Shown one piece after another: positions 1 to 56,326 of a DNA stretch of 64,000 nt. The notes below the pieces were generated by a model. It made no database searches, was not told the origin of the DNA, and saw only the letters and a program-made list of their open reading frames with translations. Numbering within the stretch: position 1 is the first letter of the stretch; each line of letters starts with the position of its first letter. The stretch is from assembly GCA_034667685.1 (NCBI GenBank), contig JAXDQU010000106.1:64001-128000 (forward strand), given 5' to 3'. The DNA comes from Thermoplasmata archaeon (GTDB taxonomy: Archaea > Thermoplasmatota > SW-10-69-26 > JACQPN01 > JAJPHT01). The translations under genes and the position numbers were made by a program.

Positions 1-392
1 GCGGTGAGGCGCCCGCTGAAGATGCCGCTGCCGCGCGGGTCGTTGTGGTTTTGATAGCGCACGCCCGCGGGATAGTCGGCGTGGCCGGGGCGCGGCGTGC
101 GGCGCAGGTCGGCGTAGTCCTGGCTTCGGGGGTCCTCGTTCGCGATCTCCATGAGGATCGGCGCGCCGGTGGTCTTGCCTTCGAAGACGCCGCTGCGGAT
201 CTTCACGCGGTCCGCCTCCTGGCGCTGCGTGGTAAGGAGGCTCTGGCCGGGGCGGCGGCGGTCCATCTGGGGCTGGACGTCGGCCTCGCTGAACGGGACG
301 CCGGGGGGCGCGCCGTCGACGACGACGCCCACCATCTCGCCGTGGCTCTCGCCGAGGACCGTGAGGCGGTAGCGGCGGCCGATCGTGTTCAT
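1..392 (-). CDS. aroC: chorismate synthase (3' part runs off the window)
   Basis: Manual translation MNTIGRRYRLTVLGESHG...RRRPGQS...GKTTGAP...PRPGHADY...SGRLT. ATG overlaps the aroA stop (ATGA). Not in the ORF track. Confidence 0.95.
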   Translation of the reverse strand, partial: MNTIGRRYRLTVLGESHGEMVGVVVDGAPPGVPFSEADVQPQMDRRRPGQSLLTTQRQEADRVKIRSGVFEGKTTGAPILMEIANEDPRSQDYADLRRTPRPGHADYPAGVRYQNHNDPRGSGIFSGRLT

Positions 393-1639
393 GATATCAC
401 CTGGAGGCTGGCGCCGAGGCGCTGGAAGTCGGTCAGGAAGGCGGGATAGCTGACGGCGTGCGCCTCGTGGTCGTCCAGCACGAGCGGGCCCTGCGCGGCG
501 AGGCCGCAGACGGCGAGCGCCATCTCGACGCGGTGGTCGCCTTCCGTGACGAGGCCGCCCGCGCCGTGGACCGGGCCGCCGCGGATGATGGCGCCATCCT
601 CGCGCTCGCGGGCGTCGACGCCCAGGCGCTGCAGGTTCGTCACCATCGCGCGGATGCGGTCGCTCTCCTTGAAGCGCAGGTGCGCCGCGCCGGATAGCAC
701 CGTCTCGCCCTGCGCATGGGCCGCGATCGCGCAGAGGATGGGGAAGAGGTCGGGCGTGTCGCTGAGATCGGCTTCGATCCCACGCAGCGGCGCCTTCGCG
801 ACCGTGACGCTCCGGCCGCGCGCCGCGACCCTGGCGCCGAAGCGCCGCAGCAGCTCCACGATGGCCCGGTCGCCCTGCGCGGTGCGCTCGGGCAGGTTCT
901 CCACCGTGACCTCGCCCGCAAGCGCGCCCGCCGCGAGCGGAAAGGCCGCGGTGCTGAAGTCGCCCGGCACCGGGTAGTCGCGCGCGCGGTAGCTCTGACC
1001 GCCGGGCACCGCGAGCCCATCCACGCGCGCCCCGAAGTCGCGCATCATCTCCCGGGTGATATCAACGTACGGCTCGCTCTTGAGCGCGCCCTCGATCTCC
1101 ACCGTGACGCCCTGCGGCGTCCGGGCGCCGGCGAGGAGCAACGCGCTCACGAACTGGCTCGACACATCGCCGGGAAGACGCGCGCGTCCCCCCTGGAGCG
1201 GCCCGCGGATGGCGAGCGGCGCATTGCCCTCGGCGCTCGTCGTCTTGGCGCCCAGCGACTCCAGCGCCGCGAGGAGCGGGCCCATCGGACGCTTGCGCAG
1301 CGAGGCGTCGCCCGTGAGCCGGACTTCCGCGCCCGAGAGCGCGACGATCGCGCTGAGCAGCCGCAGCGTCGTCCCGCTGTTGAGGCAATCGATCGTCTCG
1401 CGGGGCGCGCGCACGACGCCGTCGCTCGTGATCCGGATCGCCTCGCCGCGCTCGACCGTGGCGCCGAGCATCTCGACCGCCTGGAGCGTGGCGCGCGGGT
1501 CCTCCGAGAGGAGCGCGTCGCGCACCGTGGTCGTGCCCTCGGCGAGCAGGCCCAGGAGGAGCGCGCGGTGCGTGTAGGACTTGGAGGGCGCGGCCTTGAC
1601 CGTGCCGTGGACCGACGAGGGCGAGACGCGGAGGCTCAT
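389..1639 (-). CDS. aroA: 3-phosphoshikimate 1-carboxyvinyltransferase (EPSP synthase)
   Basis: SKSYTHRA, NSGTTLR, SSQFVSALL, LRFKESDR and DHR motifs. Start MSLRV overlaps the aroK stop. Confidence 0.95.
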   Translation of the reverse strand: MSLRVSPSSVHGTVKAAPSKSYTHRALLLGLLAEGTTTVRDALLSEDPRATLQAVEMLGATVERGEAIRITSDGVVRAPRETIDCLNSGTTLRLLSAIVALSGAEVRLTGDASLRKRPMGPLLAALESLGAKTTSAEGNAPLAIRGPLQGGRARLPGDVSSQFVSALLLAGARTPQGVTVEIEGALKSEPYVDITREMMRDFGARVDGLAVPGGQSYRARDYPVPGDFSTAAFPLAAGALAGEVTVENLPERTAQGDRAIVELLRRFGARVAARGRSVTVAKAPLRGIEADLSDTPDLFPILCAIAAHAQGETVLSGAAHLRFKESDRIRAMVTNLQRLGVDAREREDGAIIRGGPVHGAGGLVTEGDHRVEMALAVCGLAAQGPLVLDDHEAHAVSYPAFLTDFQRLGASLQVIS

Positions 1640-2523
1640 GATAGCACCTCGGCGCGCGCGTTGGTGGGGCGCGTCAGGAGGACCTGCGCGTTGGGGGCGA
1701 GGCTCCGCAGCGCGCTCTCGACGGCCTTGGTGTCGGCCTCGCGCGCGACCGCCGCGAACGCGGGGCCCTTGCCCGAGACGCCCGCGGCGAGCGCGCCCGA
1801 CGCAAGCGCGGCGCGGGTCCACCCGGGAGACGTGCCGTAGAGCGCGCCGCAGACGAGGCCGTTCATCGTCATCGCATCCGCCCAACGCCCGACCCGCGCG
1901 AGCGTGTGCGCCTCCAGCGCGAGCGGCGCGAAGGGCGCGTAAGGCAGGTCCTTGACCGAGAGAGTAGGAGTCTTGGTGGAGGGAACTAGGAGGATAACAC
2001 GGAGCGACTCGTCCACGTCCTCGCGGTGGAGCACCTTCCGCTGGCGGTTGTCCGTCACGACGAGGCCCCCCTGCATGGAAGCGCTCGCATCGTCGAACGC
2101 GCCCGTGATCGTGACGCCCGCGTCGAGCGCGGCCTCGATGGCGGCGTCGAGCAACGCCGCGCGATCCAGCGCGCGCCCCTCGTAGAGCTGGAAGGCGCGG
2201 TTCGCGGCCAACACGATGGCATTGGCCGCCGCGCTGCTGGATTTCAGCCCGCGGGTCGCGGGGATCGTGCTGGTCGTCTCGACGCGACCGCCCCAATCCG
2301 GCTCGCCCAGGCGCGCGACGACGGCCTTGAGCGCGAGACGCGCCAGCATCGGGTCCTCCGCCTCCTCCCCGTCGATCACGACCTCGACCTCGGGCACGTC
2401 CTCGAGCAGCGTCACCTTGGCCTCCGTGCGCAGGTCCACCGCGAACGCCGCCCCCGCGTGGCCCGTGACGATGGCGTTGACGACGCTCACCGCGCCCTGG
2501 GCGAACGCGCGCGCCACGCTCAT
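1636..2523 (-). CDS. aroK: archaeal shikimate kinase (GHMP family)
   Basis: GAVSVVNAI, GLKSSSAA, TITGAFDDA and SGKGPA motifs; lies in the aro operon. Confidence 0.93.
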   Translation of the reverse strand: MSVARAFAQGAVSVVNAIVTGHAGAAFAVDLRTEAKVTLLEDVPEVEVVIDGEEAEDPMLARLALKAVVARLGEPDWGGRVETTSTIPATRGLKSSSAAANAIVLAANRAFQLYEGRALDRAALLDAAIEAALDAGVTITGAFDDASASMQGGLVVTDNRQRKVLHREDVDESLRVILLVPSTKTPTLSVKDLPYAPFAPLALEAHTLARVGRWADAMTMNGLVCGALYGTSPGWTRAALASGALAAGVSGKGPAFAAVAREADTKAVESALRSLAPNAQVLLTRPTNARAEVLS

Positions 2524-3977
2524 GATAGCACGCTCCGCATCGCGTCGAGGGGCGCCTCGCGGCCCGTCCAGAGCTTGAACGCGCGCGCCCCCTGGTGCAG
2601 GAGCATCGCCCGCCCGTCCACCGCCACGAGACCGCGCGCGCGGGCCTCGCGGACCAGACGCGTGCCGCCCGGCCGGTAAACCGCATCGAGCAACGCCGCC
2701 CCGGACCCGAGACGCGCGACGTCGATCGGGCTTTCGTCCTGGTGGAGCCCCACCGTCGTGCAGTTCACGACGAGCGCAAAAGGAGCAGGGTCCGCGCCCC
2801 ACGGCAGCACGGCAAAGCCCAACGCCGCCGCCTTCTCGGCCGTCCGGTTGCTGACCGTCACGCGCGCCCCGGCGCCCGCCAACGCATGCGCCACGCCACG
2901 CGCCGCGCCCCCCGCGCCCAAAACGAGCGCACCGAGCCCGCGGACCGCGACACCCGCCTCGGCCAGCGCATCGAGCGCCCCCGCGCCATCCGTGTTGTGC
3001 GCCTCCACCTTGCCGTCGCGGAACACGAGCGCGTTGGCCGCGCCCGCCGCCCGCGCCTCCGGCGAGACGACGTCCACCAGGTCCAACGCCGCGACCTTGT
3101 GCGGCACCGTCAGGCTGACGCCCAAGGGCGGCGCGGCCCGAAAGCCCGCGATCGCCGCATCCAGGTTCTGCGGCGCGACGTCCAACGCAAGATAGCACGC
3201 ATCGAGACCGAGCGCGCGGAACGCCGCGTTGTGCATCGCGGGCGAAAGCGAATGCGAGACGGGATGGCCCACGACGTAGGCCGCGCGCGTCGCCGCGCCG
3301 AAGCTAGATCTGCTGAGATCTAGCTGGACCCGGCGCAGCGCGTCGAGGGGCACCTGCCCCGCGGTCGCGGCTGGCGCGCCGGGCACGCTGCCATACGCGA
3401 GCGCGAGGCCCAGCGCGGGCGCAAGCAGGCGCAGGAACGGATCGTTGACCGCCATGATCGCGCACGGGATCTTCTCCTGGCGGGCGCGTTGGGCGGCTTC
3501 GACGAGCGCGGCGGCGTCCTGCGGGCCCTGGACGAACGTGGCGATCTTGGCGACGTCGGCGCCCAGCGCGCGCATCTGACGCAGCGTGGCGAGGAGCGCG
3601 TCGGCGCTGGGCGTGCCGGCGAGGTCGTGCTGCGAGACGATCGCCTGGGCGTCCATGGCGTGGGCTTCGGCGACGAGGGCGCGCGCTTCGTCGTTGGCGA
3701 GCTCGACGTCGATCGCCTTGGCGCCGGCCCGGAGCGCGCGGCGGAGGATATCGTTCCGGGTCTTGTCGTCAGCATGGCTACGGCCGCCGTCGTCCGCGTG
3801 GCGCATGGTGGCGATGCAGGGCTTGGCGAAGCTGAAGAACGCGCGCAGGTCCCAGGGCAGGCCGCTGGGCCCGTCGAGGCGGATCTCGATCCAGTCGGCG
3901 TGGGCCTCGGCGGCCCGGGCGCGGGCGTAGAGCTCGTCGGGCGTCTCGCCGATGGCCGTCGCGACGAGGAGCGTCAT
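2520..3977 (-). CDS. aroD-aroE: fused type I 3-dehydroquinate dehydratase / shikimate dehydrogenase
   Basis: N-terminal EIRLD...TMR..DGG..DVEL..SQH..KIA (AroD). C-terminal GHPVSHSLSPAMHN, TVPHK, NTDG, GAGGAA, MLLHQG (AroE). Confidence 0.92.
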   Translation of the reverse strand: MTLLVATAIGETPDELYARARAAEAHADWIEIRLDGPSGLPWDLRAFFSFAKPCIATMRHADDGGRSHADDKTRNDILRRALRAGAKAIDVELANDEARALVAEAHAMDAQAIVSQHDLAGTPSADALLATLRQMRALGADVAKIATFVQGPQDAAALVEAAQRARQEKIPCAIMAVNDPFLRLLAPALGLALAYGSVPGAPAATAGQVPLDALRRVQLDLSRSSFGAATRAAYVVGHPVSHSLSPAMHNAAFRALGLDACYLALDVAPQNLDAAIAGFRAAPPLGVSLTVPHKVAALDLVDVVSPEARAAGAANALVFRDGKVEAHNTDGAGALDALAEAGVAVRGLGALVLGAGGAARGVAHALAGAGARVTVSNRTAEKAAALGFAVLPWGADPAPFALVVNCTTVGLHQDESPIDVARLGSGAALLDAVYRPGGTRLVREARARGLVAVDGRAMLLHQGARAFKLWTGREAPLDAMRSVLS

Positions 3978-4980: not shown

Positions 4981-5765
4981 AGGTCGCGGACCACCTCGTC
5001 CAGCGTGGCCTTGCCGTGGACGAGGCGGCCCACGGCGCGCGTGATGCCGGCGACGTCCTTGTGCTGCCAGAGGTTGCGTCCGACCGAGACGCCCGCGCCG
5101 CCCGCGGCGAGCGAGCCGGCGACCATCTCCAGGAAGGCGCGGTCGGTGTCGGCCTTGGGGCCGCCGCTGATGACGACGGGCACGTCCACGGACCGCACGA
5201 CCTCGCGGAACGTGTCGGGCGAGCCCGTGTAGGGGACCTTGATGATATCAGCGCCCAGCTCGTAGCCTAGGCGCGCGACCTTCTTGACGAGCTTGAGGTC
5301 GTGCGGGTTGGTGATCTCGTGGCCGCGCGGGTACATCATGGCCAGGAGCGGGAGGCCGTAGCGGTCGCAGTCGTCCGAGAGACGGCCCACGTCCTCGATC
5401 ATGCGCGACTCCTCGGGGCTGCCGACGTTCACGTGGACCGAGAGCCCGTCCGCGCCCAGGCGGAGCGCCTCCTCGACCGACGCGACGACGCGCTTGTCGT
5501 TGGGGTCGGGGTTGAGGCCCGTGCTGGCGCTCACGTGGAGCCACACGCCCATCCCGCCGACGCTGCCCGCCAGCGAGCGCACGACGCCCTTGTGGACGAC
5601 GATGCTGTCGGCGCCGCCCCGCGCGACGGCGGCCGCGGTCTCGGCCGGCCGCTCCAGGCCGGGGAGGGGGCCGTCGCTGACGCCGTGGTCCATGGGGACG
5701 ATGACGCCCTTGCCTTCCGCACCGAGGAGGCGGCGGAGCCGGAGCCGCTTGCCAACGCTTGTCAT
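4977..5765 (-). CDS. aroA': 2-amino-3,7-dideoxy-D-threo-hept-6-ulosonate synthase (class I aldolase)
   Basis: GKRLRL, PMDHG, PLLAMMYPRG, ELGADIIK and GRNLWQH motifs; first gene of the operon, adjacent to aroB'. Confidence 0.9.
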   Translation of the reverse strand: MTSVGKRLRLRRLLGAEGKGVIVPMDHGVSDGPLPGLERPAETAAAVARGGADSIVVHKGVVRSLAGSVGGMGVWLHVSASTGLNPDPNDKRVVASVEEALRLGADGLSVHVNVGSPEESRMIEDVGRLSDDCDRYGLPLLAMMYPRGHEITNPHDLKLVKKVARLGYELGADIIKVPYTGSPDTFREVVRSVDVPVVISGGPKADTDRAFLEMVAGSLAAGGAGVSVGRNLWQHKDVAGITRAVGRLVHGKATLDEVVRDL

Positions 5766-11944: not shown

Positions 11945-11988
11945 GGTTGGGCTGACACAGATGGCCTCCCAGGGTGCCGGCTTGTAAC

Positions 11989-14537: not shown

Positions 14538-16421
14538 TCACCCTTGCCGCTTCTTGCGCCAGACGACGACGCCGACCACCGCGATGGCGCCCAGGACGCC
14601 GATCGCGAGCGACGCGACGCTGGGGAAGAACGGCACTTGCGCCGTGGGCGGCGTAGACGTGCAGTTGTGCGTGCACGATCCCGGCGGGCCCTGCGGACCC
14701 GTCGGGCCCCTTTCGCCACGCGGACCCTGCGGCCCAGCGGGCCCGGTCGCGCCCGGCGGCCCGGGGGGACCCGCGGGGCCCGGCGGACCGGCAGGACCGA
14801 CCGCGCCATCTTGGCCGTTCGTGCCGTTCGTTCCGTTGACGCCGTTCTCGCCGGCAGGGCCAGGCGGACCGGCGGGGCCCATCGGACCCTGGGGGCCGGG
14901 CTGGCCGTCCGGGCCCGTGGAACCCTGGGGGCCGGGCGGGCCGGCGGGTCCAGGCGGACCCGCGGGGCCAGCAGGGCCGGCGGGACCGGCGGCGCCATCC
15001 GCGCCGTTCGTGCCGTTCATGCCGGCGGGTCCTGGGGGACCCGGAGGCCCGGCGGGACCGGTCTCACCCGGAGCGCCATTCGTACCGTTCGTGCCGGGCG
15101 GGCCAGCGGGGCCAGCAGGTCCAGCCGGGCCAGCGGGACCAGCAGGGCCGGTGGGTCCAGCAGGGCCGGTTTCACCAGGGGCACCGTTCGTGCCGTTTGT
15201 GCCCGCAGGACCAGCAGGACCAGCAGGACCAGCAGGACCAGCGGGTCCAGCCGGGCCAGCGGGACCAGTTTCACCAGGAGCGCCGTTCGTGCCATTCGTC
15301 CCGTTGGTGCCCGCGGGACCGGGGGGGCCGGCGGGTCCCGCAGGACCGGCCGGGCCTGCCGGGCCCGTGGCGCCGTCAGCTCCGTTCGTGCCGTTCGTGC
15401 CCGCCGGACCGGCCGGTCCCGGCGGACCTGCGGGACCCATGGGGCCCGTGGCGCCGTCGGTACCGTTGGTGCCGTTCGCGCCGGCGGGACCGGCCGGCCC
15501 GGGAGGACCTGCCGGGCCTTCGGGGCCCATCGGGCCCGTCGCGCCGTCCGTGCCGTTGGTCCCGTTGGTGCCTGCGGGGCCAGGCGGACCCATGGGACCC
15601 GCAGGGCCCGCAGGACCGGCCGGCCCGGGCGGGCCCTGCATGCATGAGCACGGGCAGTTGCATCCCTGGGGGAGGCTGACCGTGTTCGTGTCGAGCGTGA
15701 CCGCGCCCGTGCGCGCGAGGAGCCGTCCGTCGACGGTCGCGCCCGTGGTGGCCGTGATGCTGTCCTGGGCCATGACCGTGCCCACCATCGTGGAGGTCGT
15801 TCCCAGCGTGGCGGAGGACCCGACCTGCCAGAACACGTTGCACGCCGTGGCGTTCCCCACGAGCTGGACGACGCTCGCGCTCGCGGTCGTCAAGGCCGAG
15901 CCGACCTGGAAGATGAAGACGGCGTTGGGATCGCCGCCGCCATCGAGCGTGAGCGTGCCCGTGATGCCCAACGACGAGTTCGCCGTGTAGACGCCCGGCG
16001 TGAGCGTCTGGCCGCCGATGTCGCCCGAGACGTAGAAGTCCGTGGGCTGCGCGGCCGCGTCGAGGTACGCGTGCGTGAGGTCGGCTTGAGCTTGCGCGGC
16101 GACCGCGTCGCCGGCGAAGATCTTGCCGTTGACCACGACGCCGGGGCCGGCATCCACGGATTGGAATCCAGTGACGGCGGTGCCCGGACTCACGCCGAGG
16201 TTGCCGCTGACCACCGTGGGTCCCGTGTTCGTGACCGTGGATCCCCCGAGCACGGCGAAGGTGCGCGCGGTCCCGAGGTCCGGGGCCGTGCCGGAGGCTT
16301 GCGCGCCCGGCGAGGCCAGCACGAGAACGACCATGATGGTCGCGACCAACGCGAGGTTGAACGCGGCCCGCGTCCTGGCCGCGCGGTCTCCTGCTTCGCT
16401 TGATGCGTTCCTTGATATCAA
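14538..16421 (-). CDS. ice-binding (DUF3494) domain + collagen-like stalk + C-terminal sorting signal
   Basis: Signal peptide; [37 protein letters not shown] (DUF3494); 106 Gly-X-Y triplets; VPFFP-TM-RKKR tail. TTG start uncertain. Confidence 0.92.
14682..15635 (-). repeat. collagen Gly-X-Y coding repeat with 8 GxN-GTN modules
   Basis: Uninterrupted triplet periodicity in the translation. Confidence 0.95.
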
Positions 16422-16895: not shown

Positions 16896-17711
16896 TCAGC
16901 CCGAGTCCTTCACCAGGCTCGTGATCTCGCGCGCGGCGACGTCCACCTCGCGCAGGTCCTCGCGCGCGTGGGCCTCGCGGTCGAACACGACCACGAGCGA
17001 GCCCACGTCCGGGACGCGGCGGTAGACGAGCGAGCCGCCCTTGTAGCGGACGACGCCGGTCTCCTGCTCTTCGAGGGCGAGGTTGCCGCCCACCATGTCG
17101 AGGTTGCGCAGGACGCTGCCGGTGACCATGGCGGCGAGCGGGTCGATGTCGCGGCCGCCTTCGGCGCGCTTGCTCACGGCGAGGGGGAGGCCGTCGGTGC
17201 TCGTGAGGAACGTGCCGCGCGCCTCGGGGAGCGACTCGCGCAGCGTGCCCAGGACGTCCTCCATGCTGTGGCGCAGGTTGGGGCGCGAGCGGATGCGCTC
17301 CTCGATCTCCTTGGCGCGGCGCTGGGCGTTGCTCTGGCCGTAGAGGCGTTCGAGCGTGCGGGGGATCTCCTCGCGGAAGTGGGGCGCGTCCTTGTTGACG
17401 TAGCCGATGGCGCCGACCTGGAGGCCGCGGGCGGCGACGTACTCGCTGCCGAAGCCGCTGACGATGACGACGGGCGTGCCGGGGGCCTTCTCGACGAGCT
17501 GGAGGAGGACCTCGAGGCCCGTCATGTCGGGGAGCGCGTAGTCGAGGAGGATGATATCATAGGTGGCGTCGGCGAGCTTCTGGAGCCCCTGCTGGCCGGT
17601 GGTGGCCCAGGTGATCTCGACGCCCGGCTCGTCGCGGAACGCGCGCTTCACGATGTAAGCGTCCGTCTCGGAGTCTTCGATGTGGAGGATGCGCCGGAAC
17701 GAGGACGGCAC
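16896..17711 (-). CDS. response regulator receiver domain fused to a Roadblock/LC7 (MglB-like) domain
   Basis: ILHIEDS, DIILLDYALPDMTG, IVSG, YVNK (REC). LPEARGTFLTSTDGLPLA...LAAM...GSLVVV (Roadblock). Confidence 0.85.
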   Translation of the reverse strand: MPSSFRRILHIEDSETDAYIVKRAFRDEPGVEITWATTGQQGLQKLADATYDIILLDYALPDMTGLEVLLQLVEKAPGTPVVIVSGFGSEYVAARGLQVGAIGYVNKDAPHFREEIPRTLERLYGQSNAQRRAKEIEERIRSRPNLRHSMEDVLGTLRESLPEARGTFLTSTDGLPLAVSKRAEGGRDIDPLAAMVTGSVLRNLDMVGGNLALEEQETGVVRYKGGSLVYRRVPDVGSLVVVFDREAHAREDLREVDVAAREITSLVKDSG

Positions 17712-22018: not shown

Positions 22019-25000
22019 CTAAAGCCTTCTCCGGAGGTCGCCGCGAGTGCCCAGCGCGGCCAGCGCGAGCGCGGCCAGCGGCGCGAGGACGGGCATCGGC
22101 GCGTCGTGCGGGCTGGCCGGGGGTGGCGTGCCGTCCGTGCCCCAGCCCGAGAAGCGCGAGTCGCCCAGCGGGCGCACGATGCGGACGCTCCAGCCGCGGG
22201 CTTCGCTCGCCGCGCCCTCGGGGCCCACGGCGCGCAGGGCGACGTCGTGGTGCCCGGCCGGCAGGTCGCGGGTGGTGGCGTCGAGGCGCCATTCGCCGCC
22301 GCTGGCGTTGAGCGGGGTCCACGTGCCCGCGTCGAGGCGCCATTCGACGGTGCCGTTGTCCGCGAGGCGCCCCGCGGCGTGGACGAGGCCGTACGCGATG
22401 GGCGCGGGGGGCTCGTCGACGACGAGCGCGGGCGGGGGGCGCGCGACCTGGATCTCGACGCGCGCCTCCTTCTTGGCGTCGATGCCGTGGTAGGCGTCGA
22501 CGAGCGCGACGTGGAGGCCGGGCGTCATGCCGCGCAGCGGGACGGTGAAGGCGATCGGCTGGCCCACGACGTCCTGCCAGGGTCCCGCGTCGAGGCGCCA
22601 GCGGACGGCGGTGACGTTCTGCGGGTGGTAGGCGCTGCCCTGGAGGTCGTAGTCGGCGCCGACGGGGTCGAGGGGCGCGTTGGCCACGGTCAGGACGAGC
22701 GCCTGGTCCTGCGCGCCGTTGGCGATGGTGATCGGGACGCTGGCGAGGCCTTCGGCGCCGGCTTCGTCGACGACGCGGGCGACGAGCCGGTAGTCGCCGT
22801 CGGGGAACGCGGTGCTATCAAGGAGGAGCCGCCAGTTGGCGAGGCCCTGCGCGGGCATCCAGGGGGAGGGGCCCAGCGCGTAGGTGCGCGTGCCGGAGCG
22901 GAGCTGGACCTCCACCCGGGTGAGGTTGCGGGGGCCTTCGGCGTGGCCCAGGAGGGCGACGGAGCCGCGGAGCGGGTCGCTGGGGAGGGGTTTCCCGATG
23001 GCGATCGTGGGGGGCGCGAGGCTGGGCGGGGCGGGGTCGACCTGGATGGCGAGCTGGGCGGTGGCGGTGGCGCCTTCGTCGTCGAGGACGGTGAGCTTGG
23101 CGGCGTAGACGCCCGGCGCGGGGTAGACGAACGTGCAGCGGGTGGCGGCGCCGTCGCAGTCGGGGAGGCCGTCGCCGTCGGCGTCGAATTGATAGCGCGC
23201 GAGGCGGCCGTCGGGGTCGCGGCTCGCGTCGGCGACGAGCGTGAGGGGCCAGCCGGAGACGCCGGTGGGCGCGGTGAGGTTGGCCTGCGGGGGGACGTTG
23301 GCGATGCGCAGCGTGGTGTTGGCCTCCGCGGTGGCGCCGGCGGCGTTGCGCGCGACGAGGGAGACGACGTAGTCGCCCGCCCTGGCGTAGGCGTGCGTGG
23401 GCTCCAGCCCGGTCGCGTTCGTTCCGTCGCCGAAGTCCCACGCGAGCGAGGCGATCCCGCCCATGGCGTCGTTGCCCACGGCGCGGAACGAGACGGGCTC
23501 CAGCGCGCGCGGGTCGGCGGGCGCCGCGAGGATGGCGCGCACCTGCGGCGCGGCGTCGCCCACGAGGATTTGGCGGGTCAGGTTGGCGCTCAGGCCCCAG
23601 TCGTCGGTGATCGTGAGCGTCACGTCGTACGCGCCGGGGGCGGGGAAGGCGTGCGCGACGTCGCGCCCCCAGGCGCCGAAGCTCCACGACCAGTTGACGA
23701 TATCACCGTCGGGCTTGCGCGAGAGGTCGAGGAAGCCCACGGGCTCGCCGGCGCGCGGGGCCAGGGGCGCCCAGGTGAACGCCGGCGTGGGCGCGACGTC
23801 CTGCACGTCGACGAGCTGTGTCGCGGTCGCGGTGGCGCCGGGCGCGTCCTGCACGGTGAGGGAGACGACGTGCGGCCCGCGCGCGACGAAGCGGTGCGTG
23901 GGGCTCGCGTCCGCGCTGGCGGCTCCGTCGCCGAAATCCCAGTGGCGCGCCACGAGCTGCCCCTCGGGGTCGAACGAGTCGTCCTCGAAGCTCACCTCAT
24001 CGAGCAGCGTGGGCGCGGCGGGCGCGAGGCGGAGGCGCGCGACGGGCGGCGCGTTGGCGATGGCGACGAGCGCGCTGGCGACGGGGCTCGCGGCGCCGCG
24101 GTCGTCGTAGACGGTGAGGTTCGCGCGGTAGAGCCCCTCCTGCGCGTAGCGGTGCGCCACGCTTGGCGAGGCGCCGCTCGCGGTCGCGCCGTCGCCGAAC
24201 TGCCAGGCGTAGCGGACCACGCGCCCGTCGGCGTCGGAGGCGTCGGCCCGGAACGAGGTGTCCGCGACCGCGAGCCCCGCGTCGACGTGGAGCGCGGCGA
24301 TGGGGGCCCGGTTGAGGGCGACGAGCGAGGCGTCGAGCGTGGCGGCGCGGCCGTGGTCGTCGTGCGCGAGGACGCGCAGCGCGTGGCCGCCAGGCGAGGC
24401 GAGCGCGACCTGCGCGGTGGCGCCCCGCGCGACGTCGACGCCATCGAGCGTCCAATGCGCGTCGGGATCGGCGGGCGCCAGGGAGAACGACAGCGGCGTC
24501 CCGGTGGGGCGCGGCGCCTCGTCGCCCGCGATGCCGGCGGAGCGGGGCGTCCGCACCGCGAAGGCGGACTCGCGCGGCGCGCCCTGCTGGCCGGCGCCGT
24601 CCACGGGCGTCGCGCGGACGACGTGCGTGCCCGAAAGGAGGCCGTCGACCTGCACCTGCCACGTCCACGCGCCGCCGTGCGCGGGTGCCGAGACGGGGGG
24701 CGCATCGTCGAGCGAGACGAGCACGCGCGCCGTGGAGGGGGAGACGACGCCGCGCGCGAGGATGCACGGCCCGGGGCACGAAGGATCGCCCGCGGAGCCG
24801 AACGCGTCGCCAGGTTGGGGCGCCTGGATCGCGAGCGTGGGCGGCGGGGTCGCGCCCGCGGCGACGTCGGACAGGGCCGGGAGGCTCGTCGCGTCGTCGC
24901 GGTGCGCGATCGCCACGAGGCGCGTGAGGCCCGCGGGGAGGTCGACGCTCGCGCGCCAGGCGGAGCCCACGAGCGTCGCGGGGATCGTCCGGTCGCCGAC

Positions 25001-27473: not shown

Positions 27474-27485
27474 ACGGCCGCGCCC

Positions 27486-31459: not shown

Positions 31460-32042
31460 GAAGCGCCACGACGTCGACCTCGTGGACGGCCTTCTCGTGG
31501 TGCCGGTACTGATGCCGCAGCGCGAACCGGAGCGCCCAGGCGTGCGTGGGATGGAACCCCGCCGCCTCGGCGTAGGACTCCACGAAGGCGCGCGTCGCCG
31601 CGTTGTGCAGCGTGTAGACGACGGGCGCCGCGCGGAAGGCGGCGTTGAGGAAGACGCGATCCGCGCCCCGCTGCTGCGCGCCGAAAGGCGGGTTCATCAC
31701 GATCGTGTCGGCCGCGCCACGCCACGCCGCGACGTCGGCCTCCACCCACGCGACCCCGGCGCCCAAGCCTTGCGCAGCGCGCCGCGCGACGGCGAGCGCC
31801 TCCGGGTCCACGTCGACGCCCACCGTCTCCGCCGCGCCCAGGAGCGAGGCGCCGATCGCGAGGACGCCCGTGCCGCAGCCCAGATCCGCCACGCGGCGGC
31901 CCGTGATATCACCGAGCGCCAGCGCCTCGTGCAGCAGCGGCGCCGCCAGATCGGCGGGCGTCGCGTACTGCTCCAGGTGCAGCTTCGGCTTCGGATGCGG
32001 TGGCACTTTTGATAGTATGCGCTCAAGATCGCGCAAGCGCAA
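31362..32042 (-). CDS. METTL5-family RNA methyltransferase
   Basis: LEQYATP, DLGCGTG and MNPPFG motifs; about 25-aa atypical C-terminal extension. Confidence 0.9.
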   Translation of the reverse strand: MRLRDLERILSKVPPHPKPKLHLEQYATPADLAAPLLHEALALGDITGRRVADLGCGTGVLAIGASLLGAAETVGVDVDPEALAVARRAAQGLGAGVAWVEADVAAWRGAADTIVMNPPFGAQQRGADRVFLNAAFRAAPVVYTLHNAATRAFVESYAEAAGFHPTHAWALRFALRHQYRHHEKAVHEVDVVALRLSRKPVMPSTENQSLLTGVQPVDERFGSLSP

Positions 32043-32043
32043 T

Positions 32044-32091
32044 CGCTATCACCAAGAAATGATAGCGCGATAGCAATAACAGTTAGCTATC
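32044..32091. promoter_or_regulatory. AT-rich spacer with two adjacent inverted repeats built from GCTATC/GATAGC boxes
   Basis: CGCTATCA-N8-TGATAGCG followed by GATAGC-N11-GCTATC. Confidence 0.55.
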
Positions 32092-32524
32092 ACATGACCT
32101 CGGGTCCGTGGATGGCCCCCTTCTGCTGCGCAGGCTGCTGCGGCGTGAAATTCACCTGCGGAAGCGGGATCGGCGGCGGAAGCTGCAGATCCTTCGCGAT
32201 CCCCACCGCCTGCGGCACGCAAACGCGCATCACCGTGCTGTGGATCTCCGTCGCCGCGTCAGGCGCCATCTGGTTCGTCGTGCGCCACGCCGCCTCGAAA
32301 GCCTTCGCATCGCACGTGAAGTTCATGTTCCCCTCGATCCGGATCACGCCCACCGCCCCATAGGCCGCCGTGTAGCGGAACTCCACGTTGACCTCCTGCG
32401 GCGTGACCTCCTTCACAAGCGTCACCGTCGACGAATGGTCGATCCGGATGTTGGGCAGCCGCTCGTTGGTCTTCGAGTACCGCTTGGCCTCGATCCCAGT
32501 GAGCTCCAGACGCGTGACGGGCAC
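32090..32524 (-). CDS. conserved archaeal hypothetical protein (possibly SecB-like fold)
   Basis: VEFRYTAAY...IRIEG...IAKDLQLPPPIPLP; TATA box about 28 bp upstream of the GTG. Confidence 0.7.
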   Translation of the reverse strand: MPVTRLELTGIEAKRYSKTNERLPNIRIDHSSTVTLVKEVTPQEVNVEFRYTAAYGAVGVIRIEGNMNFTCDAKAFEAAWRTTNQMAPDAATEIHSTVMRVCVPQAVGIAKDLQLPPPIPLPQVNFTPQQPAQQKGAIHGPEVM

Positions 32525-41000: not shown

Positions 41001-41075
41001 CGCCTGGCGCGAGCGCTTCGTGATATCAGAATCGGGCGTCGCTGGATTGTTCTCGCGTTCGCTCGGGCGGAGGAG

Positions 41076-44964: not shown

Positions 44965-45963
44965 GTGCACGGCCCGCTGGCGTACCTGCGCGAGCACCGC
45001 GTGGCGGTGGAGTCCGCCCTGGCGGCGCGCGACCTGGCGCCGCGCATCCTGACGCGCTCCGCGGAGAGCATGCCCGAGGTCGCGGACGCGAGCGTGCACC
45101 TGGTCGTCACCTCGCCCCCCTATCCGATGATCGAGATGTGGGACGCGCAGCTGGCCGCGCAGACCGGCGTGGCGCCCACGGCCCAGGGCGGCTTCGCGGC
45201 GAGCCACGCGATGCTCGCGCGCGTCTGGGCCGAGTGCTGGCGCGTGCTATCACCGGGCGGGATGCTCGCGATCAACGTGGGGGACGCGACGCGCTCGGTC
45301 GAGGGCGACTTCCGCTGCGCGCTCAACCACGTGCAGGTGGCGCGCGACTGCGAGGCGCTGGGCTTCGCGAGCCTCGTGCCGATCCTCTGGAAGAAGCCGA
45401 CCAACAAGCCCAACGCGTTCCTGGGCAGCGGCTTCCTCCCGACGAACGCCTACGTGACGCTCGACTGCGAGTTCATCCTGCTCTTCCGCAAGGGCTCCGC
45501 GCGCGCCTTCCCCGCGAAGGACCCGCTGCGCTACGCGAGCCAGATGAGCAAGGCGGAGCGCGACGTCTGGTTCAGCCAGCTCTGGGACGTGCGCGGCGCG
45601 GCGCAGGACGCGGAAGGCACGGCGCCCTTCCCGCCGGAGATCCCCTACCGGCTCGTGCGCATGTTCTCCTGCCTGGGCGACACGGTCCTCGACCCCTTCG
45701 CCGGCACCGGCACGACGCTCGCCATCGCCCGCGCGCTGGGGCGCAAGGCCATCGGCTGCGAGATCAACCCGGACCTCGCGCTCGCGAAGCGCATCCCGGC
45801 CGAGGCGCCCTTGGCGTCCGCCGTGCTCGACGCGCTCGACGCGCACTATGCGGCCACGAGCGGCGCGGCGGAGAAGCCCAACGACGCGCCGGCGCGCTTC
45901 CTCACGTGGGCCGGTGCAGCCGCTTCCGGTACTCGTCCACCAGGCAGTGCGCCTGCTGCGTGA
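44965..45963 (+). CDS. orphan beta-class N4-cytosine DNA methyltransferase, Zim (CTAG)-like
   Basis: VTSPPYPMIEMWD, INVGDATRS, GSGFLPTNAYVTL, LDPFAGTGTT; resembles haloarchaeal Zim from recall; no cognate nuclease adjacent. Confidence 0.85.
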   Translation: MHGPLAYLREHRVAVESALAARDLAPRILTRSAESMPEVADASVHLVVTSPPYPMIEMWDAQLAAQTGVAPTAQGGFAASHAMLARVWAECWRVLSPGGMLAINVGDATRSVEGDFRCALNHVQVARDCEALGFASLVPILWKKPTNKPNAFLGSGFLPTNAYVTLDCEFILLFRKGSARAFPAKDPLRYASQMSKAERDVWFSQLWDVRGAAQDAEGTAPFPPEIPYRLVRMFSCLGDTVLDPFAGTGTTLAIARALGRKAIGCEINPDLALAKRIPAEAPLASAVLDALDAHYAATSGAAEKPNDAPARFLTWAGAAASGTRPPGSAPAA

Positions 45964-47694: not shown

Positions 47695-49956
47695 TTACTG
47701 CTGCGCCTCCACGACCGCAATCGCCGCCATATTCACAACGTCCCGCACGTCGTCGCCGCGCTGGAGGATGTGGACCGGCTTCGCCATGCCCGCGAGGATC
47801 GGCCCGGTCATCTCGGCCTCGGAGAGGCGCTGGAGCAGCTTGTAGGCGATGTTCGCGCTCTGGAGGTCGGGGAAGACCAGCACGTTGGCGGGCTCGCGCA
47901 GCTTGCTGAAGGAGTATTCCGCGAGCAGCTCCGGGACCACGGCGGTGTCGGCCTGCATCTCGCCATCCACCTCGAGGTCGGGCGCCTTCTGCTTCACGAT
48001 CTCGACGGCGCGCGCGACCTTCTCCGCGAAGGGGTGGCGCGTGCTGCCGAAGTTGCTGAACGAGAGCATGGCGACGCGCGGGGCGACGTCGAACTGGCGC
48101 GCGACCTTGGCCGTCTCGATCGCGATGTCGGCCAGGTCCTCCGCCGTGGGGTCGATGTTGACCGTCGCGTCGGCCAGGAAGAAGACGCGGTTCTTGAGCG
48201 TCATCATGTACATGCCCACCGCGCGGCGCGCGCCCTTCCTGGTGCCGATGATCTGGAGCGCGGGCCGGAGCGCGTCGGGGTAGTGCGTGGTCAGGCCGCC
48301 CACGAGCGCGTCGGCCTCGCCCAGGCGCACCATCATGGCGCCCCAGGCGTGGCGCGTGCGCAGGGTGATATCAGCTTCCGAGCGCGTGACGCCCTTGCGC
48401 CCGCGCATCTTCCAGAGCTCCTCGACGTAGCGCGCGCGGTCGGGGCTCGTGCGCACGTCCACGACCTGCGCCGGGAAGTCGAGGTGCAGCTCCTTCTTCT
48501 TGGCCTCGACGAGGACGGGATCGCCCAGGAGGATCGGGATCGCCACGCCCTCGTCGTGGAGGATCTGGCAGGCGCGCAGGATCTTCTCGTCCTGGCCTTC
48601 AGGGAAGACGACGCGCTTGGGCTGGCGCTTCGCCTTGTTGAGCACGATGCGCATCATCTCGCGCGCCTTGCCCAGCCGCGCCTCCAATTCCTCGGTGTAC
48701 TTCACGAGGTCGATCTGCTTGCGCGCGACGCCCGATTCCATGGCCGCGCGGGCGACGGCCGGCGCCACGTGGAGCAGCACGCGCGGATCGAACGGCTTGG
48801 GGATCACGTAGTCGGGCCCGAACGCGATCGGATCGCCGCCGTACGCGCGGATCACCTCGTCGGGCACGTCGGTCTTCGCGAGGTCGGCGAGCGCCTTGGC
48901 CGCCGCGACCTTCATCGCCTCGTTGATCGCCTTCGCGCGGACGTCCAGCGCGCCGCGGAAGATGTACGGGTAGCCCAGCACGTTGTTGACCTGGTTGGGG
49001 AAGTCGCTCCGGCCCGTGCCCACGATGGCGTCGGGCCGCGCGCGCTTCGCGTCGTCGTACGGGATCTCCGGGTCGGGGTTCGCCAGCGCGAAGATCACCG
49101 GGCGGGGCGCCATGCCCTTGAGCATCTCGGGCGTCACGAGCCCCTTCACCGAGAGGCCCACGAAGACGTCGGCGCCCTGGAGCGCGTCCGCGATCGTGCG
49201 GCGCCCGTCGTCGGCCTGCGCGAACTCCTCCTTGTAGGGGTTCATGCCCTCCTTGCGCCCGCGGTACACGACGCCCTTGGAGTCCACGAGCGTGATGCGC
49301 TCGCGCCTGCACCCCAGCTCGACGTAGAAGCGCGCGCACGCGATGCTCGCCGCCCCCGCGCCGCTCACGACGATGCGCACCTGGTCGAGCCGCTTGCCGG
49401 TGATGCCCATCGCGTTGACGATGCCCGCACCGCTGATGATGGCCGTGCCGTGCTGGTCGTCGTGGAAGATCGGGATCTCGCAGATGCCGCGCAGCTTCTC
49501 CTCGATGTAGAAGCACTCGGGCGCTTTGATATCTTCGAGGTTCACGGCGCCGAAGGTGGGCGTGAGGTTCTTCACGACGTTGACGAACTCGTCGGGGTCC
49601 TGCGTGCTGACCTCGATGTCGAAGACGTCGATGTCGGCGAACTTCTTCATCAGCACGCCCTTCCCCTCCATCACGGGCTTGCCGGCCGCCGCGCCGATGT
49701 TGCCCAGCCCGAGCACCGCCGTGCCGTTGCTGATGACGGCCACGAGGTTGCCCTTCGCCGTGTAGCGGTACGCGAGGTCCGCGTCCTTCGCGATCTCCAG
49801 GCAAGGAATGGCAACGCCCGGCGAGTACGCGATCGAGAGGTCGCGCTGCGTCGCGGTGGGCTTGGTGGGCACGACGCTGATCTTGCCGCGCGGCTCGCGG
49901 CTGTGATAGTCGAGGACTTCCTGGTCGGTGAACCGGCGCGGGCCGTGCTCGGTCAT
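47695..49956 (-). CDS. maeB: NADP-dependent malic enzyme with a phosphotransacetylase-like domain
   Basis: [51 protein letters not shown]. Confidence 0.96.
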
Positions 49957-53621: not shown

Positions 53622-54083
53622 ATGGACCTGGAGAACCCGCCCGAGAACCCCTGCTTCGGCTGCGGTCCGCAGCACGCGCGGGGCCTGCGCCTCGCCTTCC
53701 GCCGCGAAGGGGACGAGCTCGTCACGACGCACGCCCCGCAGCCCGACGAGGTCGGGTGGCCCGGCCTCTTCCACACCGGGCTGCACTTCACGCTGCTCTA
53801 CGAGGTCAGCTACTGGGCCGCGCTGGAGCTGACGGGCAAGGTCATGACCAGCTTCGGCCCCGCGACGTTCGACCAGGAGCGCCTTCCGCGGGTGGGCGCG
53901 GCCACGACGGCCCGCGCGCGCATCGTGGCGACCGATCCGCTCACCGTCGAAGCCCGCACCACGAGCGCCGAAGGCAAGACGCAAGCCACGCTGCGGACGA
54001 CGTGGCGGGCGGCGAGCCGCGCGAGGACCGAACGCGCCGGCATCGCGCTGCCGGGTTATCTGACTGATAGCATGGAGCCGTGA
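53622..54083 (+). CDS. hotdog-fold (PaaI-like) thioesterase family protein
   Basis: CFGCG...GL.L.F, GWPG..H.G...LL.E. Confidence 0.8.
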   Translation: MDLENPPENPCFGCGPQHARGLRLAFRREGDELVTTHAPQPDEVGWPGLFHTGLHFTLLYEVSYWAALELTGKVMTSFGPATFDQERLPRVGAATTARARIVATDPLTVEARTTSAEGKTQATLRTTWRAASRARTERAGIALPGYLTDSMEP

Positions 54084-54290: not shown

Positions 54291-54328
54291 GCGCTCCGAT
54301 GCGCAGGATCCTGCTTCAGCGTTGGCGG

Positions 54329-56326
54329 TCACCCGAACGCGACCTTCTTCTCCTTCTCCGCGCGCGCCGCCGCGTCCTCCGCGAGCAGCCGCGCGATCTC
54401 GCCACGGTTGAACACGTTGCTCTCTTCGGCGAGGACGAGGTTCTGGTCCGCCTCCTTCCTGAGCAGGATCTTCACCATGCGCTCGTCGATCGTCTCGGGC
54501 GTGACGAAGAATTCCACCTGCACGGGGCGGTCCTGGCCGATGCGGTGGACGCGGTCCATGGCCTGCGCGTGCACGGCGGGCGTCCAACCCAGGTGGACGA
54601 AGAGGACGAAGCGCGCCGCGGTGAAGTTGAGGCCGATGCCGCCGGCCTCCATCTGCGCGAGGAGGATCTTCGGGCCGTGCTCGCTGCCGAAGGTCGTCGC
54701 CAATTCCTGGCGCTTGCGCGGGGGCGTGGAGCCATCGAGCATCGCGGCGACCTCCGGAAAGGCGTCCTTCAATTGGCGCAGCGGCTCCAGGTAGTGGCTG
54801 TAGACGACGACGCTCTCGCCCGCGTCCAGAAGCTCCTGGACGCGCTCCTTGACGGGCTCGACGCGCGTGAGGGCGAGGTGCTGGCGGAGGCTGTGGATGG
54901 CGGCGAAGACGGCGACGTCGCTCTGCGCCTTGCGCATCGTCTCGGCGGCCTGCGCCTCGAGCTGACGGTACGCGCTCGCGTCGCGCGGCGCCATCTCGTG
55001 CTTGGTGATCGTGATCGTGCGCGGCGGAAGCTCGGCGAGCACCTCGTCCTTGCGCCGGCGCAGGAGCACGTCGCGCGTGGCGCGCTGGAGGAAATCCGCC
55101 GCGAGGTTGCGGACGGCGCCGTAGCGGTTGAAGAGGCTCGCGTCGACCTTCCACGTGCGGCTGAACTCGGCGCGGCTCTGGAAGCGGCGCGGGTCGACCT
55201 GCTCCAGCAATTCGTAGTAGTCCTCGATGCCGTTGACGAGCGGCGTGCCGGTGAGCAGGAGGCGGCGCTTCTGGGGGAGCGCCTTGACGAGCTTGGCGCG
55301 CTGCGTCTCGGGGTTGCGGATGTAGTGCGCCTCGTCGAGGATCAGCACGTCGCGGTGCGCCACGTGCGGGTCGCCGGCGTCGAGGTTGCGCAGCGCGTCG
55401 TACGTCGTGAGCAGGAATCGCCCGTGCGGGTTGCCGATCCAGCGCTGCTGGTGGTAGACGAGCGGCGCCTCGTCGGTGAAGCGCGACACCTCGTCGGCCC
55501 AGTTGTAGAGCACGTTGGCGGGCCCGACGACCAGGGCGCGCGCGTCCGCCGCCAGCACGGCCGCGATGGTCATGACGGTCTTGCCCAGGCCCATCTCGTC
55601 GGCGAGGATCGCGTCCAGGCCGCGGCCCACGAGGAAGCGCACGCCCTCCTCCTGGTAGTGGCGCAGCTTGCCCTGGAAGTGCGGGATCGGGTCGGGCAGC
55701 ACGGCCTCCTTGATATCACGGTGCTCGAAGGCGTCGGCGCGCTGCTTGAGCGCGGTGAGCTCCTTCTGCGCCTTCCAGAGGTCGTCCGCGCCGATGCCGC
55801 GCAGCGCGGCGCTGATCTCGCGCGCCTCGTCGCGCTGCTGCGCCTTGGCGGCCTCGCGCTCGCGCTGCTTGAGGCGGTCGAGCGCCTCGTCGAGCGCGAT
55901 CAGGTCCTTGCGCGACTCGACGGCGAACTCGGGGCGATCGCGCGCCCAGACGGCCAGCTCGGTGCGCCCCGCGCGCAGCGCCGCGAGCGCTTCGGCCGGC
56001 TCCGCGTCGAGGAGCTTCAGCAGCGCGGGCACGTCGACCGGGCGCGCCTTGGCGTACGCCTCGCCCGCGCGGCCCAGCGTCACGGGCGCCTCGCCCGGCT
56101 CCGGCTCCAGCGTGGCGCGCAGGAGCATCGCGGCCTTCTGGAGCCTGGCGAAGGCCGGCTCGCGCACGAAGCGCGACCAGGAGAGCGCGCGCGGGTCGCG
56201 GTCCACCTCGATGGGCGCGCCCATCATGGCGAGCGACTTCCAGACGCGTGACTCGTCGGCCACGTCGTCCACGATGCGGACGTAGTAGCGGTCGGCCACC
56301 TTGCGGTAGCGCAGCTTCACGGGCAC
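54329..56326 (-). CDS. SNF2-family helicase/translocase
   Basis: LRHYQ, LADEMGLGKT, DEAH, LTGTP, LRRRK, GIGLN, QAMDRVHRIGQ. GTG start chosen to avoid overlap with the + strand peptide gene. Confidence 0.92.
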   Translation of the reverse strand: MPVKLRYRKVADRYYVRIVDDVADESRVWKSLAMMGAPIEVDRDPRALSWSRFVREPAFARLQKAAMLLRATLEPEPGEAPVTLGRAGEAYAKARPVDVPALLKLLDAEPAEALAALRAGRTELAVWARDRPEFAVESRKDLIALDEALDRLKQREREAAKAQQRDEAREISAALRGIGADDLWKAQKELTALKQRADAFEHRDIKEAVLPDPIPHFQGKLRHYQEEGVRFLVGRGLDAILADEMGLGKTVMTIAAVLAADARALVVGPANVLYNWADEVSRFTDEAPLVYHQQRWIGNPHGRFLLTTYDALRNLDAGDPHVAHRDVLILDEAHYIRNPETQRAKLVKALPQKRRLLLTGTPLVNGIEDYYELLEQVDPRRFQSRAEFSRTWKVDASLFNRYGAVRNLAADFLQRATRDVLLRRRKDEVLAELPPRTITITKHEMAPRDASAYRQLEAQAAETMRKAQSDVAVFAAIHSLRQHLALTRVEPVKERVQELLDAGESVVVYSHYLEPLRQLKDAFPEVAAMLDGSTPPRKRQELATTFGSEHGPKILLAQMEAGGIGLNFTAARFVLFVHLGWTPAVHAQAMDRVHRIGQDRPVQVEFFVTPETIDERMVKILLRKEADQNLVLAEESNVFNRGEIARLLAEDAAARAEKEKKVAFG

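Follow-up and report, generated by a model that had tools for sequence, protein, structure and literature searches.

Highly iterated palindromes (HIPs) of cyanobacteria were recognized some 30 years ago and, to our knowledge, there is no agreement on their function or origin. HIP1 (GCGATCGC) and its alternates are 8-nt palindromes that are over-represented tens- to hundreds-fold in a lineage-specific manner and are spread through genes and spacers without conserved flanks. According to the available excerpts of one study, their abundance exceeds expectation 15- to 300-fold, sites are conserved between genomes above matched controls, and HIP1 is distributed periodically with periods of 10-90 kb (PMC5861425); the available excerpts of a second study describe a methyltransferase of matching specificity in HIP-bearing cyanobacterial genomes and place one-off deviations mostly at the first and last positions of the word (PMC4390886). 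Here, we analyzed a stretch of 64,000 nt from the genome of a soil Thermoplasmata archaeon (assembly GCA_034667685.1, contig JAXDQU010000106.1, positions 64,001-128,000; hereafter “the window”), in which the palindrome TGATATCA and its one-base variant, the twin TGCTATCA, recur. We assign a probability of roughly 55%, slightly better than even, to the reading that the two together, TG(A/C)TATCA, are a lineage-specific hyper-abundant DNA word and an archaeal counterpart of the cyanobacterial HIPs. Our literature search returned no report of an iterated palindrome in archaea, the papers found being concerned with cyanobacteria or with methods, and no relevant report on a GATATC methylome in archaea. 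Looking for the octamer itself in article texts brought up essentially primers, and the papers listed from it were irrelevant.

The likeness to HIPs extends to several properties. The archaeal word is likewise an 8-nt palindrome of one lineage, it is spread through genes and spacers without conserved flanks, and its over-representation of about 60-190-fold falls within the range quoted above. As in the excerpted work on HIPs, its one-off deviations lie mostly at the outer positions, apart from the A/C twin, and some sites seem to be retained between genomes above controls (here in a small sample and in one direction only, from the closest congener, G003, to the source genome, G000). It differs in its host, an archaeon instead of a cyanobacterium, and in composition, the HIP word being GC-rich whereas the present one is AT-rich in a genome of 71% GC. 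Furthermore, it is found at about one site per 9 kb (one per 5 kb including the twin) compared to about one per kb for HIPs; it has a second, equally common and non-palindromic form, TGCTATCA; no matching methyltransferase was found for it in the genomes of its family, which are 72-100% complete; and its spacing is Poisson-like at the 10-kb scale, in an assembly whose longest contig spans 167 kb.

Enrichment, specificity and coding cost of the word

The original prediction had placed TGATATCA at 11 positions of the window and its variant at five, and we found the words at all of them. In 100 dinucleotide-preserving shuffles of the window, the palindrome reached a mean of 0.04 and a maximum of 1, the variant a mean of 0.24 and a maximum of 2. 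Read on the + strand, the variant appears as TGATAGCA at 1639, 2523 and 54065 and as TGCTATCA at 22813 and 45245. The source genome (3,481,428 bp in 124 contigs, 71.1% GC) harbors 378 copies of TGATATCA, a perfect palindrome that is its own reverse complement and 75% A+T, compared to about 2 expected under a second-order Markov model (ratio 192). No other 8-mer of the genome deviates as strongly from this model; the ranks below it are held by overlapping words or by the variant, which occupies 329 sites (156 TGATAGCA and 173 TGCTATCA on the + strand). For comparison, the 6-mer TGATCA has only 358 copies, and five other NNATATNN-type palindromes have 0-42. The core GATATC is present 745 times, of which 378 lie in the full octamer and 245 in 7-mers, and it is not enriched outside the octamer.

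As a gene-level null, synonymous codons were shuffled within each gene (n = 30), which keeps every protein and the codon usage of each gene. The genes contain 304 copies of TGATATCA compared to 6.4 ± 1.9 in these shuffles (maximum 11 in 30; 47-fold) and 303 copies of the variant compared to 9.4 ± 2.7. When all 8-mers were ranked against the codon null, TGATATCA came first (z = 123; 304 vs 4.9, 61-fold) and TGCTATCA second (z = 75). Other AT-rich octamers had seemed enriched under the Markov model, but codon usage explains them, as with TCTACTAC (120 vs 85) and TCTACAAC (144 vs 104). Loss of enrichment under such a shuffle, or similar counts for other AT-rich octamers, had been named in advance as findings that would speak against a selected signal; as the enrichment survives and the other octamers are explained, neither was observed.

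One-off variants were profiled against the same shuffle across the coding genome, and the only strongly enriched change is A to C at position 3/6 (303 vs 7.9 expected, 38-fold). At this position, A to G occurs 3 times (2.1 expected) and A to T 5 times (1.6 expected). Changes at position 1/8 are enriched 9.8-fold (T to A), 3.3-fold (T to C) and 2.3-fold (T to G), those at position 4/5 range from 0.9- to 2.3-fold, and at position 2/7 none was observed (0.7 or less expected in total). The double variant TGCTAGCA, changed at positions 3 and 6, occurs once (0.8 expected). Decay of the palindrome would predict a dominance of the transition A to G, which is not seen. TGCTATCA is therefore itself a favored form, and the most fitting notation for the word is TG(A/C)TATCA, with C allowed in one half only. 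Adenine and cytosine share a major-groove amino group. Judged from this profile, a reader protein is predicted to bind TGATATCA and TGCTATCA only, and not TGGTATCA or TGCTAGCA.

The word is written into genes in a preferred frame. Asp-Ile on the coding strand, nnT GAT ATC Ann, accounts for 295 of the 378 palindromes and nTG ATA TCA for 7; a further 32 are intergenic and 44 lie at gene boundaries, where TGA serves as stop codon or an ATG begins with the final A; 17 of these boundary sites are junctions of two genes. Spacers and genes carry the word at similar densities, about 7 and about 11 sites per 100 kb, respectively, and the flanks of the 378 sites show no conservation beyond the three-base periodicity that fixes the frame. 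All gene classes carry the word, and gene class and position in the gene have only mild effects. A Shine-Dalgarno role was considered and rejected: TG(A/C)TATCA runs into ATG 81 times, with GAGG upstream in only 4 of these.

Genome-wide, 2.5% of third codon positions are T, and GAT makes up 8% of Asp codons. Asp-Ile pairs preceded by T and followed by A are nevertheless spelled GAT ATC in 295 of 329 cases, compared to 28 of 928 without either flank. The same holds for GAT AGC (66/72 with both flanks vs 10/469 without) and GCT ATC (4/28 vs 4/4252), and the odds ratios for word completion are 279 (GAT ATC), 505 (GAT AGC) and 177 (GCT ATC). The saturation of the possible contexts follows the cheapness of the coding route to the word, from 94% down to 0.4%. 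Cys-Tyr-(His/Gln) is spelled TGC TAT CA in 30 of 32 cases, x-D-I-a carries the word in 295/646, (L/M/V)-L-S is written nTG CTA TCA in 201/1128, so that roughly one in three CTA and TCA codons of the genome belongs to a word, and x-D-S-a carries it in 66/508. Contexts needing ATA carry it in 9/273 and 2/856; such words are almost never formed, and ATA itself is hardly ever used in the genome (95 of about 34,000 Ile codons). An apparent asymmetry between x-A-I-a (4/1012) and x-D-S-a was gone once baselines were taken into account, as GCT before ATC has a baseline of 0.1% and its multiplier of 177 resembles the others. The claim that the word forces rare codons stood in part. Rare NNT and GAT codons are indeed used, since among the window palindromes 8/11 read nnT GAT ATC Ann (2 others being intergenic and the one at 392 reading GTG ATA TCA TGA at a gene junction), but the ATA, CTA and TCA codons that had been named are mostly unused by the word; CTA TCA is the spelling in 3 of the 5 window variant sites.

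As a dipeptide, Asp-Ile shows no enrichment (observed/expected 0.90, rank 291 of 400), but the residues following it whose codons start with A (I, T, K, N) are enriched 1.8-2.3-fold. In pairs of orthologues between the source genome and G003, many word sites differ by amino-acid as well as silent changes; the unpolarised differences include D-I-I/D-I-V, D-I-T/D-V-E, L-S-R/L-A-R, D-S/E-S and CGC vs the rare AGG. The word acts at the level of DNA, not of protein or codon usage.

Distribution, lineage range and turnover

In 283 ten-kb bins, palindrome counts follow a Poisson distribution (mean 1.13, variance 1.17, index of dispersion 1.03), with a bin histogram of 91/106/55/21/9 compared to 91/103/59/22/6 expected. 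Palindrome and twin counts per bin are uncorrelated, and across these bins, on contigs of up to 167 kb, no even or periodic spacing was seen at the 10-kb scale. Despite the AT-rich word, site density rises with local GC (Spearman 0.26, p = 8.5e-6), and lower-GC contigs are word-poor (C42, 1 vs 6.8 expected; C118, 4 vs 8.8), which is expected if resident DNA accumulates the word over time.

This distribution also sets the word apart from other chromosomal signals. The matS, parS, Noc and SlmA sites are likewise palindromic protein-binding words on chromosomes, present in tens of copies confined to chromosomal regions, whereas the 707 copies found here (378 + 329) are Poisson-spread over all 124 contigs. 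The original prediction of a selected genome-wide signal analogous to HIP1 is borne out as far as a genome-wide, DNA-level, HIP1-like palindromic 8-mer is concerned; its matS/parS part is not supported, nor is a likeness to Noc or SlmA sites, and its methylase part is so far unsupported (see below). Chi and the polar words KOPS (FtsK-orienting polar sequences) and AIMS (architecture-imparting sequences) are over-represented octamers inside genes as well, but they are strand-polar. A palindrome cannot be polar, and the asymmetric twin is oriented according to the direction of the genes and only weakly according to GC skew (70:45 vs 63:78, odds ratio 1.9).

A link to hairpin insertion elements was rejected, as 29 of 1198 hairpin-like regions lie near a site compared to 42 ± 6 at random. 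Dispersed repeats of the REP/MITE type (repetitive extragenic palindromes/miniature inverted-repeat transposable elements) were likewise discarded, given the unconserved flanks and the lack of hairpin association. Long hairpins of short tandem units (AGTCCAGA / TCAGGACT and similar) do occur just past gene ends (C8 33967-34034, C34 3634-3721, C41 2521-2612 and others); some of them lie a few bases from a word used as stop codon, with no overall association between the two.

We surveyed 31 genomes for the range of the word. All genomes compared are metagenome assemblies, and four of the five genomes of the word-rich genus (G000 and its congeners G001-G004) are 86-94% complete. The five genomes carry 378, 210, 141, 111 and 53 palindromes, corresponding to 109 to 17 per Mb, and each of the four congeners is rich in the twin as well (72, 229, 151 and 63 copies vs 5, 24, 2 and 0 for controls). 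Four other genera of the same family have 2-5 copies (0.6-1.6 per Mb), and relatives in the order and class have 0-9. Small low-GC genomes of the phylum hold 8-52 copies, with controls raised too. A possible second case, G030 with 215 copies, was discarded: in 187 kb sampled from contigs chosen for holding sites (48.7% GC), 23 copies were found vs 9 expected, at most about 2.5-fold, and composition explains them. The trait is confined to one genus of GC-rich soil Thermoplasmatota and arose at its base.

Sites turn over between species. The original prediction had called for a look at conservation in orthologues, and we compared 392 kb of G003 with the source genome; 245 kb of it could be aligned, with an identity of 78%. 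Coding 8-mers in general are shared unchanged in 26-32% of cases and composition-matched controls with two A/T third positions in 8-12%. Among the G003 sites, 7/16 in coding DNA and 10/22 overall are kept in the source genome (p = 0.0017 vs 12%). The denser genome, at twice the density, keeps old sites and has many of its own, so that copy number is maintained and most positions are not. In orthologues from congeners and sister genera, the place of the word is mostly taken by GAC ATC or GAC GTC. Two window sites could be aligned in eight and six related loci, where the spellings of congeners and sister genera include CGACATCG, GGACGTCA and CGACGTCG, and one congener carries the 7-of-8 match CGATATCA.

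Sites, box array and neighboring genes in the window

The window has a GC content of 0.685-0.760 per 4-kb bin and an archaeal gene content (DHQ synthase II, PcrB, NMD3, Rpo11, Csl4, TruD and PAC2). TruD of the closest congener is 84% identical to that of the window, and the genes of this congener are archaeal as well. The sites are collected in Table 1.

Table 1. Word sites and the box array in the window, with their coding context
Feature	Position	Strand	Context
TGATATCA at gene junction	392..399		EPSP synthase (389-1639, - strand) ends GTG ATA TCA TGA; next ATG overlaps
TGATATCA	1057..1064		GTT GAT ATC ACC (V-D-I-T) in EPSP synthase
Variant at gene junction (TGCTATCA on - strand)	1639..1646	-	GTG CTA TCA TGA; next ATG overlaps
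Variant at gene junction (TGCTATCA on - strand)	2523..2530	-	GTG CTA TCA TGA; next ATG overlaps
TGATATCA	5243..5250		GCT GAT ATC ATC (A-D-I-I) in DeoC-type aldolase gene
TGATATCA	16413..16420		Intergenic by the gene calls of this analysis
TGATATCA	17552..17559		TAT GAT ATC ATC (Y-D-I-I) in response-regulator gene
Variant	22813..22820	-	CTT GAT AGC ACC (L-D-S-T), PKD-domain surface protein; G003 orthologue CTG GAC ACC (D-T)
TGATATCA	25632..25639		TTT GAT ATC ACG (F-D-I-T)
TGATATCA	30915..30922		CGT GAT ATC ATC (R-D-I-I), exosome Csl4-like gene; G003 CGC GAC ATC GTG, other orthologues also non-word
TGATATCA	31904..31911		GGT GAT ATC ACG (G-D-I-T), METTL5-like methyltransferase gene; G003 GGC GAC GTC GAG (G-D-V-E)
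Intergenic array of five to six 7-of-8 boxes (TGATAGC / GCTATCA), two adjacent 8-mers	32007..32092	-	Between conserved 144-aa gene and METTL5-like gene
TGATATCA	41021..41028		Intergenic
Variant TGCTATCA	45245..45252	+	GTG CTA TCA (V-L-S) inside N6_N4 DNA methylase gene
TGATATCA	48366..48373		GCT GAT ATC ACC (A-D-I-T) in malic enzyme/PTA gene
Variant TGATAGCA	54065..54072	+	ACT GAT AGC ATG (T-D-S-M)
TGATATCA	55711..55718		CGT GAT ATC AAG (R-D-I-K) in SNF2-family helicase gene

The box array lies in the exosome/Rpo11 cluster, upstream of the METTL5-like gene, and is the only such intergenic cluster in the source genome. It is conserved in 4/5 genomes of the genus: the same spacer holds five to six boxes in G001, G003 and G004 (with TGATATCATGATATCA in G001; coordinates in relatives' loci are L005 4576-4670, L006 2973-3047 and L007 12384-12434), and G002 has one box. 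Three sister genera (G005, G006 and G007) have none. The array may be an operator for whatever reads the word. Adjacent 8-bp boxes are the targets of MetJ-type ribbon-helix-helix repressors, and by this analogy the arrangement suggests that class of reader. The 144-aa protein encoded directly upstream of the array (32093-32524) matches no Pfam family and is 90% identical in G003 and 62% in a sister genus; the stop codon of its gene is the TGA of an array box.

In the shikimate operon (389-3977; aroDE fusion, GHMP-type shikimate kinase and EPSP synthase), three consecutive genes end in GTG (A/C)TA TCA TGA with the next ATG overlapping, and the word is reused as a stop/start junction. Between core genes at 26309-28493, a MazE/AbrB-like gene accompanies two serine-recombinase genes with a Resolvase domain, and the cluster contains an internal DNA match (26677-27384 vs 27629-28369). 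It may be a small mobile or invertible module.

Putative reader and rival explanations

Our view of the origin of the word is as follows. Copies are made by point substitutions wherever coding allows, mostly silent C-to-T or G-to-A changes; conservative replacements (V to I, A to S, E to D) and AGG, a rare codon for Arg, are probably used too. The last step completing the word is favored about 180-500-fold in odds everywhere in resident DNA. We propose that the word is a target with two-fold symmetry, bound or modified by a homodimeric protein which the genus would have gained or re-specified. Such a reader would be strict at G2, T4 and their mirror positions, loose at the outer T1/A8, and would accept A or C, with their common amino group, at position 3 in one half only. 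The number of copies would be maintained and not their position, whether through selection for many sites or through directional biased fixation tied to the reader. In its full form, in which the genus evolved its own strongly maintained recognition word TG(A/C)TATCA, read by a putative dimeric protein contacting or flipping the amino-bearing base 3, and thereby the first archaeal iterated palindrome, the proposal is tentative, and we hold it at clearly less than even odds.

Several points weigh against this reading. Selection and drive both fit these data, with roughly equal weight. An architectural role would lead one to expect evenly spaced sites, and the Poisson spacing shows no hint of this. 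In the reverse direction of the orthologue comparison, only 7/43 coding and 10/47 overall sites of the source genome are kept in G003, which is not significantly above matched controls (p = 0.16), and the sample is small, with one congener, 47 sites of the source genome and 22 of G003. Genes were called with a crude codon-likelihood caller made for this analysis (3479 genes, 87% coding), and start sites are approximate. Furthermore, no candidate reader tracks the trait: among D12, N6_N4, C5 and N6 methylases, none is shared by the five word-rich genomes and at the same time absent from the sister genera. Among repair proteins, Vsr is absent from the source genome and was seen in G003 alone, where C5 methylases adjoin it; MutS_V gave only weak matches, in all five genomes searched; and NucS is found in 4/5 genomes searched, on both sides of the divide between word-rich and word-poor genomes.

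The methylase that the original prediction had offered as a possible reader is so far unsupported, as no member of a DNA methyltransferase family tracks the trait in the family's 72-100% complete genomes. The D12 (Dam/EcoRV-class) methylase has no match in the four congeners and only a weak one at the family cut-off in the source genome (21.8 bits, in a 1090-aa frame). Searches with PF01555, PF00145 and PF02384 over 9 genomes of the family yielded no genus-specific member, and G002 contains the word without a PF01555 match (at 88% completeness). The pattern (D/N/S)PP(Y/F/W/H) retrieved 33 of 3479 proteins, of which 18, together with one C5-like protein, were taken to Pfam; besides a gene on contig C97, these are RNA or small-molecule enzymes. 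The C97 gene, a second N6_N4-like candidate, was rejected since it occurs in the source genome only. The window's own N6_N4 methylase (44965-45963) was rejected as well, with identities of 58-66% in word-less sister genera vs 61-75% within the genus. It is conserved at 58-75% across the order, and a Pfam scan of its neighbors showed no obvious partner endonuclease. In view of its conservation in genera that lack the word and of a CTAG frequency in the genome of 0.22 of expectation, this enzyme may be a conserved orphan that recognizes a different sequence.

Among the rivals, the strongest holds the word to be a pure by-product of biased repair or fixation, in which a sequence-specific modification or repair activity fixes mutations that move near-cognate sites toward the word, and copies accumulate without any function. 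This corresponds to the ratchet of Elhai, as far as it is laid out in the available part of that work (PMC4390886). The Poisson spacing, the tracking of saturation with cheapness from 94% to 0.4%, the similar odds multiplier (177-505) whichever half is completed, and the word-poor, probably recently acquired low-GC contigs (C42, 1 vs 6.8; rho 0.26) all agree with it. Each of these features is, however, equally expected from selection for copy number. A machinery for it did not emerge, there being no genus-specific methylase or Vsr and no canonical MutS, in a search that covered methylases, Vsr, MutS and NucS. Known very-short-patch repair effects are only few-fold, compared to 60-190-fold here. 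We regard this explanation as unlikely on balance, at about three chances in ten.

Somewhat less probable still are selected docking sites for an abundant chromatin or chromosome-organizing protein, as proposed for HIP1 by Xu et al. in the available excerpts of their study (PMC5861425). The strong, position-independent upkeep of copy number, the retention of G003 sites in the source genome above matched controls (7/16 vs about 10%) and the conserved intergenic box array, which resembles an operator, are in line with docking; the lack of even or periodic spacing at the 10-kb scale is not. A candidate protein family is suggested by the extended word GTGATATCAC, which is made up of GTGATA/TATCAC, the half-sites of the Thermococcales TrmB-type motif. 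The source genome has 13 TrmB-like paralogues (family size 6-13 per genome), two of which lie side by side in the window (11974-13617), mutually 34% identical and with low codon scores. These two were discarded as readers and speak against this variant of docking, since they have no orthologue in the congeners (best identity 29-32%) and are strain-specific paralogues.

It is rather improbable that TG(A/C)TATCA is a methylation word, that is, the target of an orphan exocyclic-amino methyltransferase flipping base 3 (A at N6, C at N4), with HIP-like accumulation as a consequence. The appeal of this explanation lies in position 3 taking only A or C (303 vs 7.9; G, 3 vs 2.1; T, 5 vs 1.6). Base 3 of the word is the first A of the GATATC core, which is the base that EcoRV-type enzymes methylate, and a C standing there instead can be modified at N4 by N6-adenine methylases. 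The word thus shares its core with EcoRV-type restriction-modification sites, and its degenerate base is the first A of such a site; restriction sites are normally avoided, whereas the word is enriched, and GATATC outside the octamer is not. The missing D12 match in four congeners (weak in the source genome), the window N6_N4 methylase that is equally conserved without the word, the second N6_N4-like gene restricted to the source genome and G002 with the word but no PF01555 match all count against methylation. In its favor, cyanobacterial HIPs go with matching methylases in the available excerpts of the HIP literature (PMC4390886).

We consider a “self” tag for DNA uptake or recombination very improbable. 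Like the uptake signal sequences (USS) of Pasteurellaceae and the DNA uptake sequences (DUS) of Neisseriaceae, the word is lineage-specific and genome-wide, it accumulates by substitution in genes, and its one-off variants are enriched. Its scarcity in atypical low-GC DNA is in line with such a tag as well. However, USS and DUS are asymmetric 9-12-mers found about once per kb and tied to known uptake machinery, the word is palindromic and ten-fold sparser, and we know of no sequence-specific DNA uptake in archaea. Finally, an artefact of composition, codon pairs or peptides, or a dispersed repeat, can be dismissed: high GC and strong codon bias do make naive expectations unreliable, but no support for it survives the codon- and protein-preserving shuffles (5-6 vs 304), the unenriched Asp-Ile dipeptide (0.90, rank 291 of 400), the unconserved flanks and the 2-5 copies in sister genera of similar GC.

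The preferred reading, an archaeal counterpart of the HIPs, would add an independent case, in which the word is AT-rich in spite of a very strong bias in GC and codon usage. The case is also recent, being confined to one genus whose sister genera have about 1 copy per Mb. Owing to this sharp boundary the cause should be findable, since the trait should go back to a gene that was acquired or re-specified at a single node, and the A/C degeneracy predicts N6-methyladenine (m6A) or N4-methylcytosine (m4C) at base 3. The case also illustrates how strongly a process acting on DNA may prevail over the choice of codons and even over the sequence of proteins, which matters for annotation, codon-usage models and the detection of horizontal transfer. 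If a dimeric reader is indeed responsible, this young word of a single genus could allow comparative genomics and methylome data to find the reader and the function of HIP-type words.

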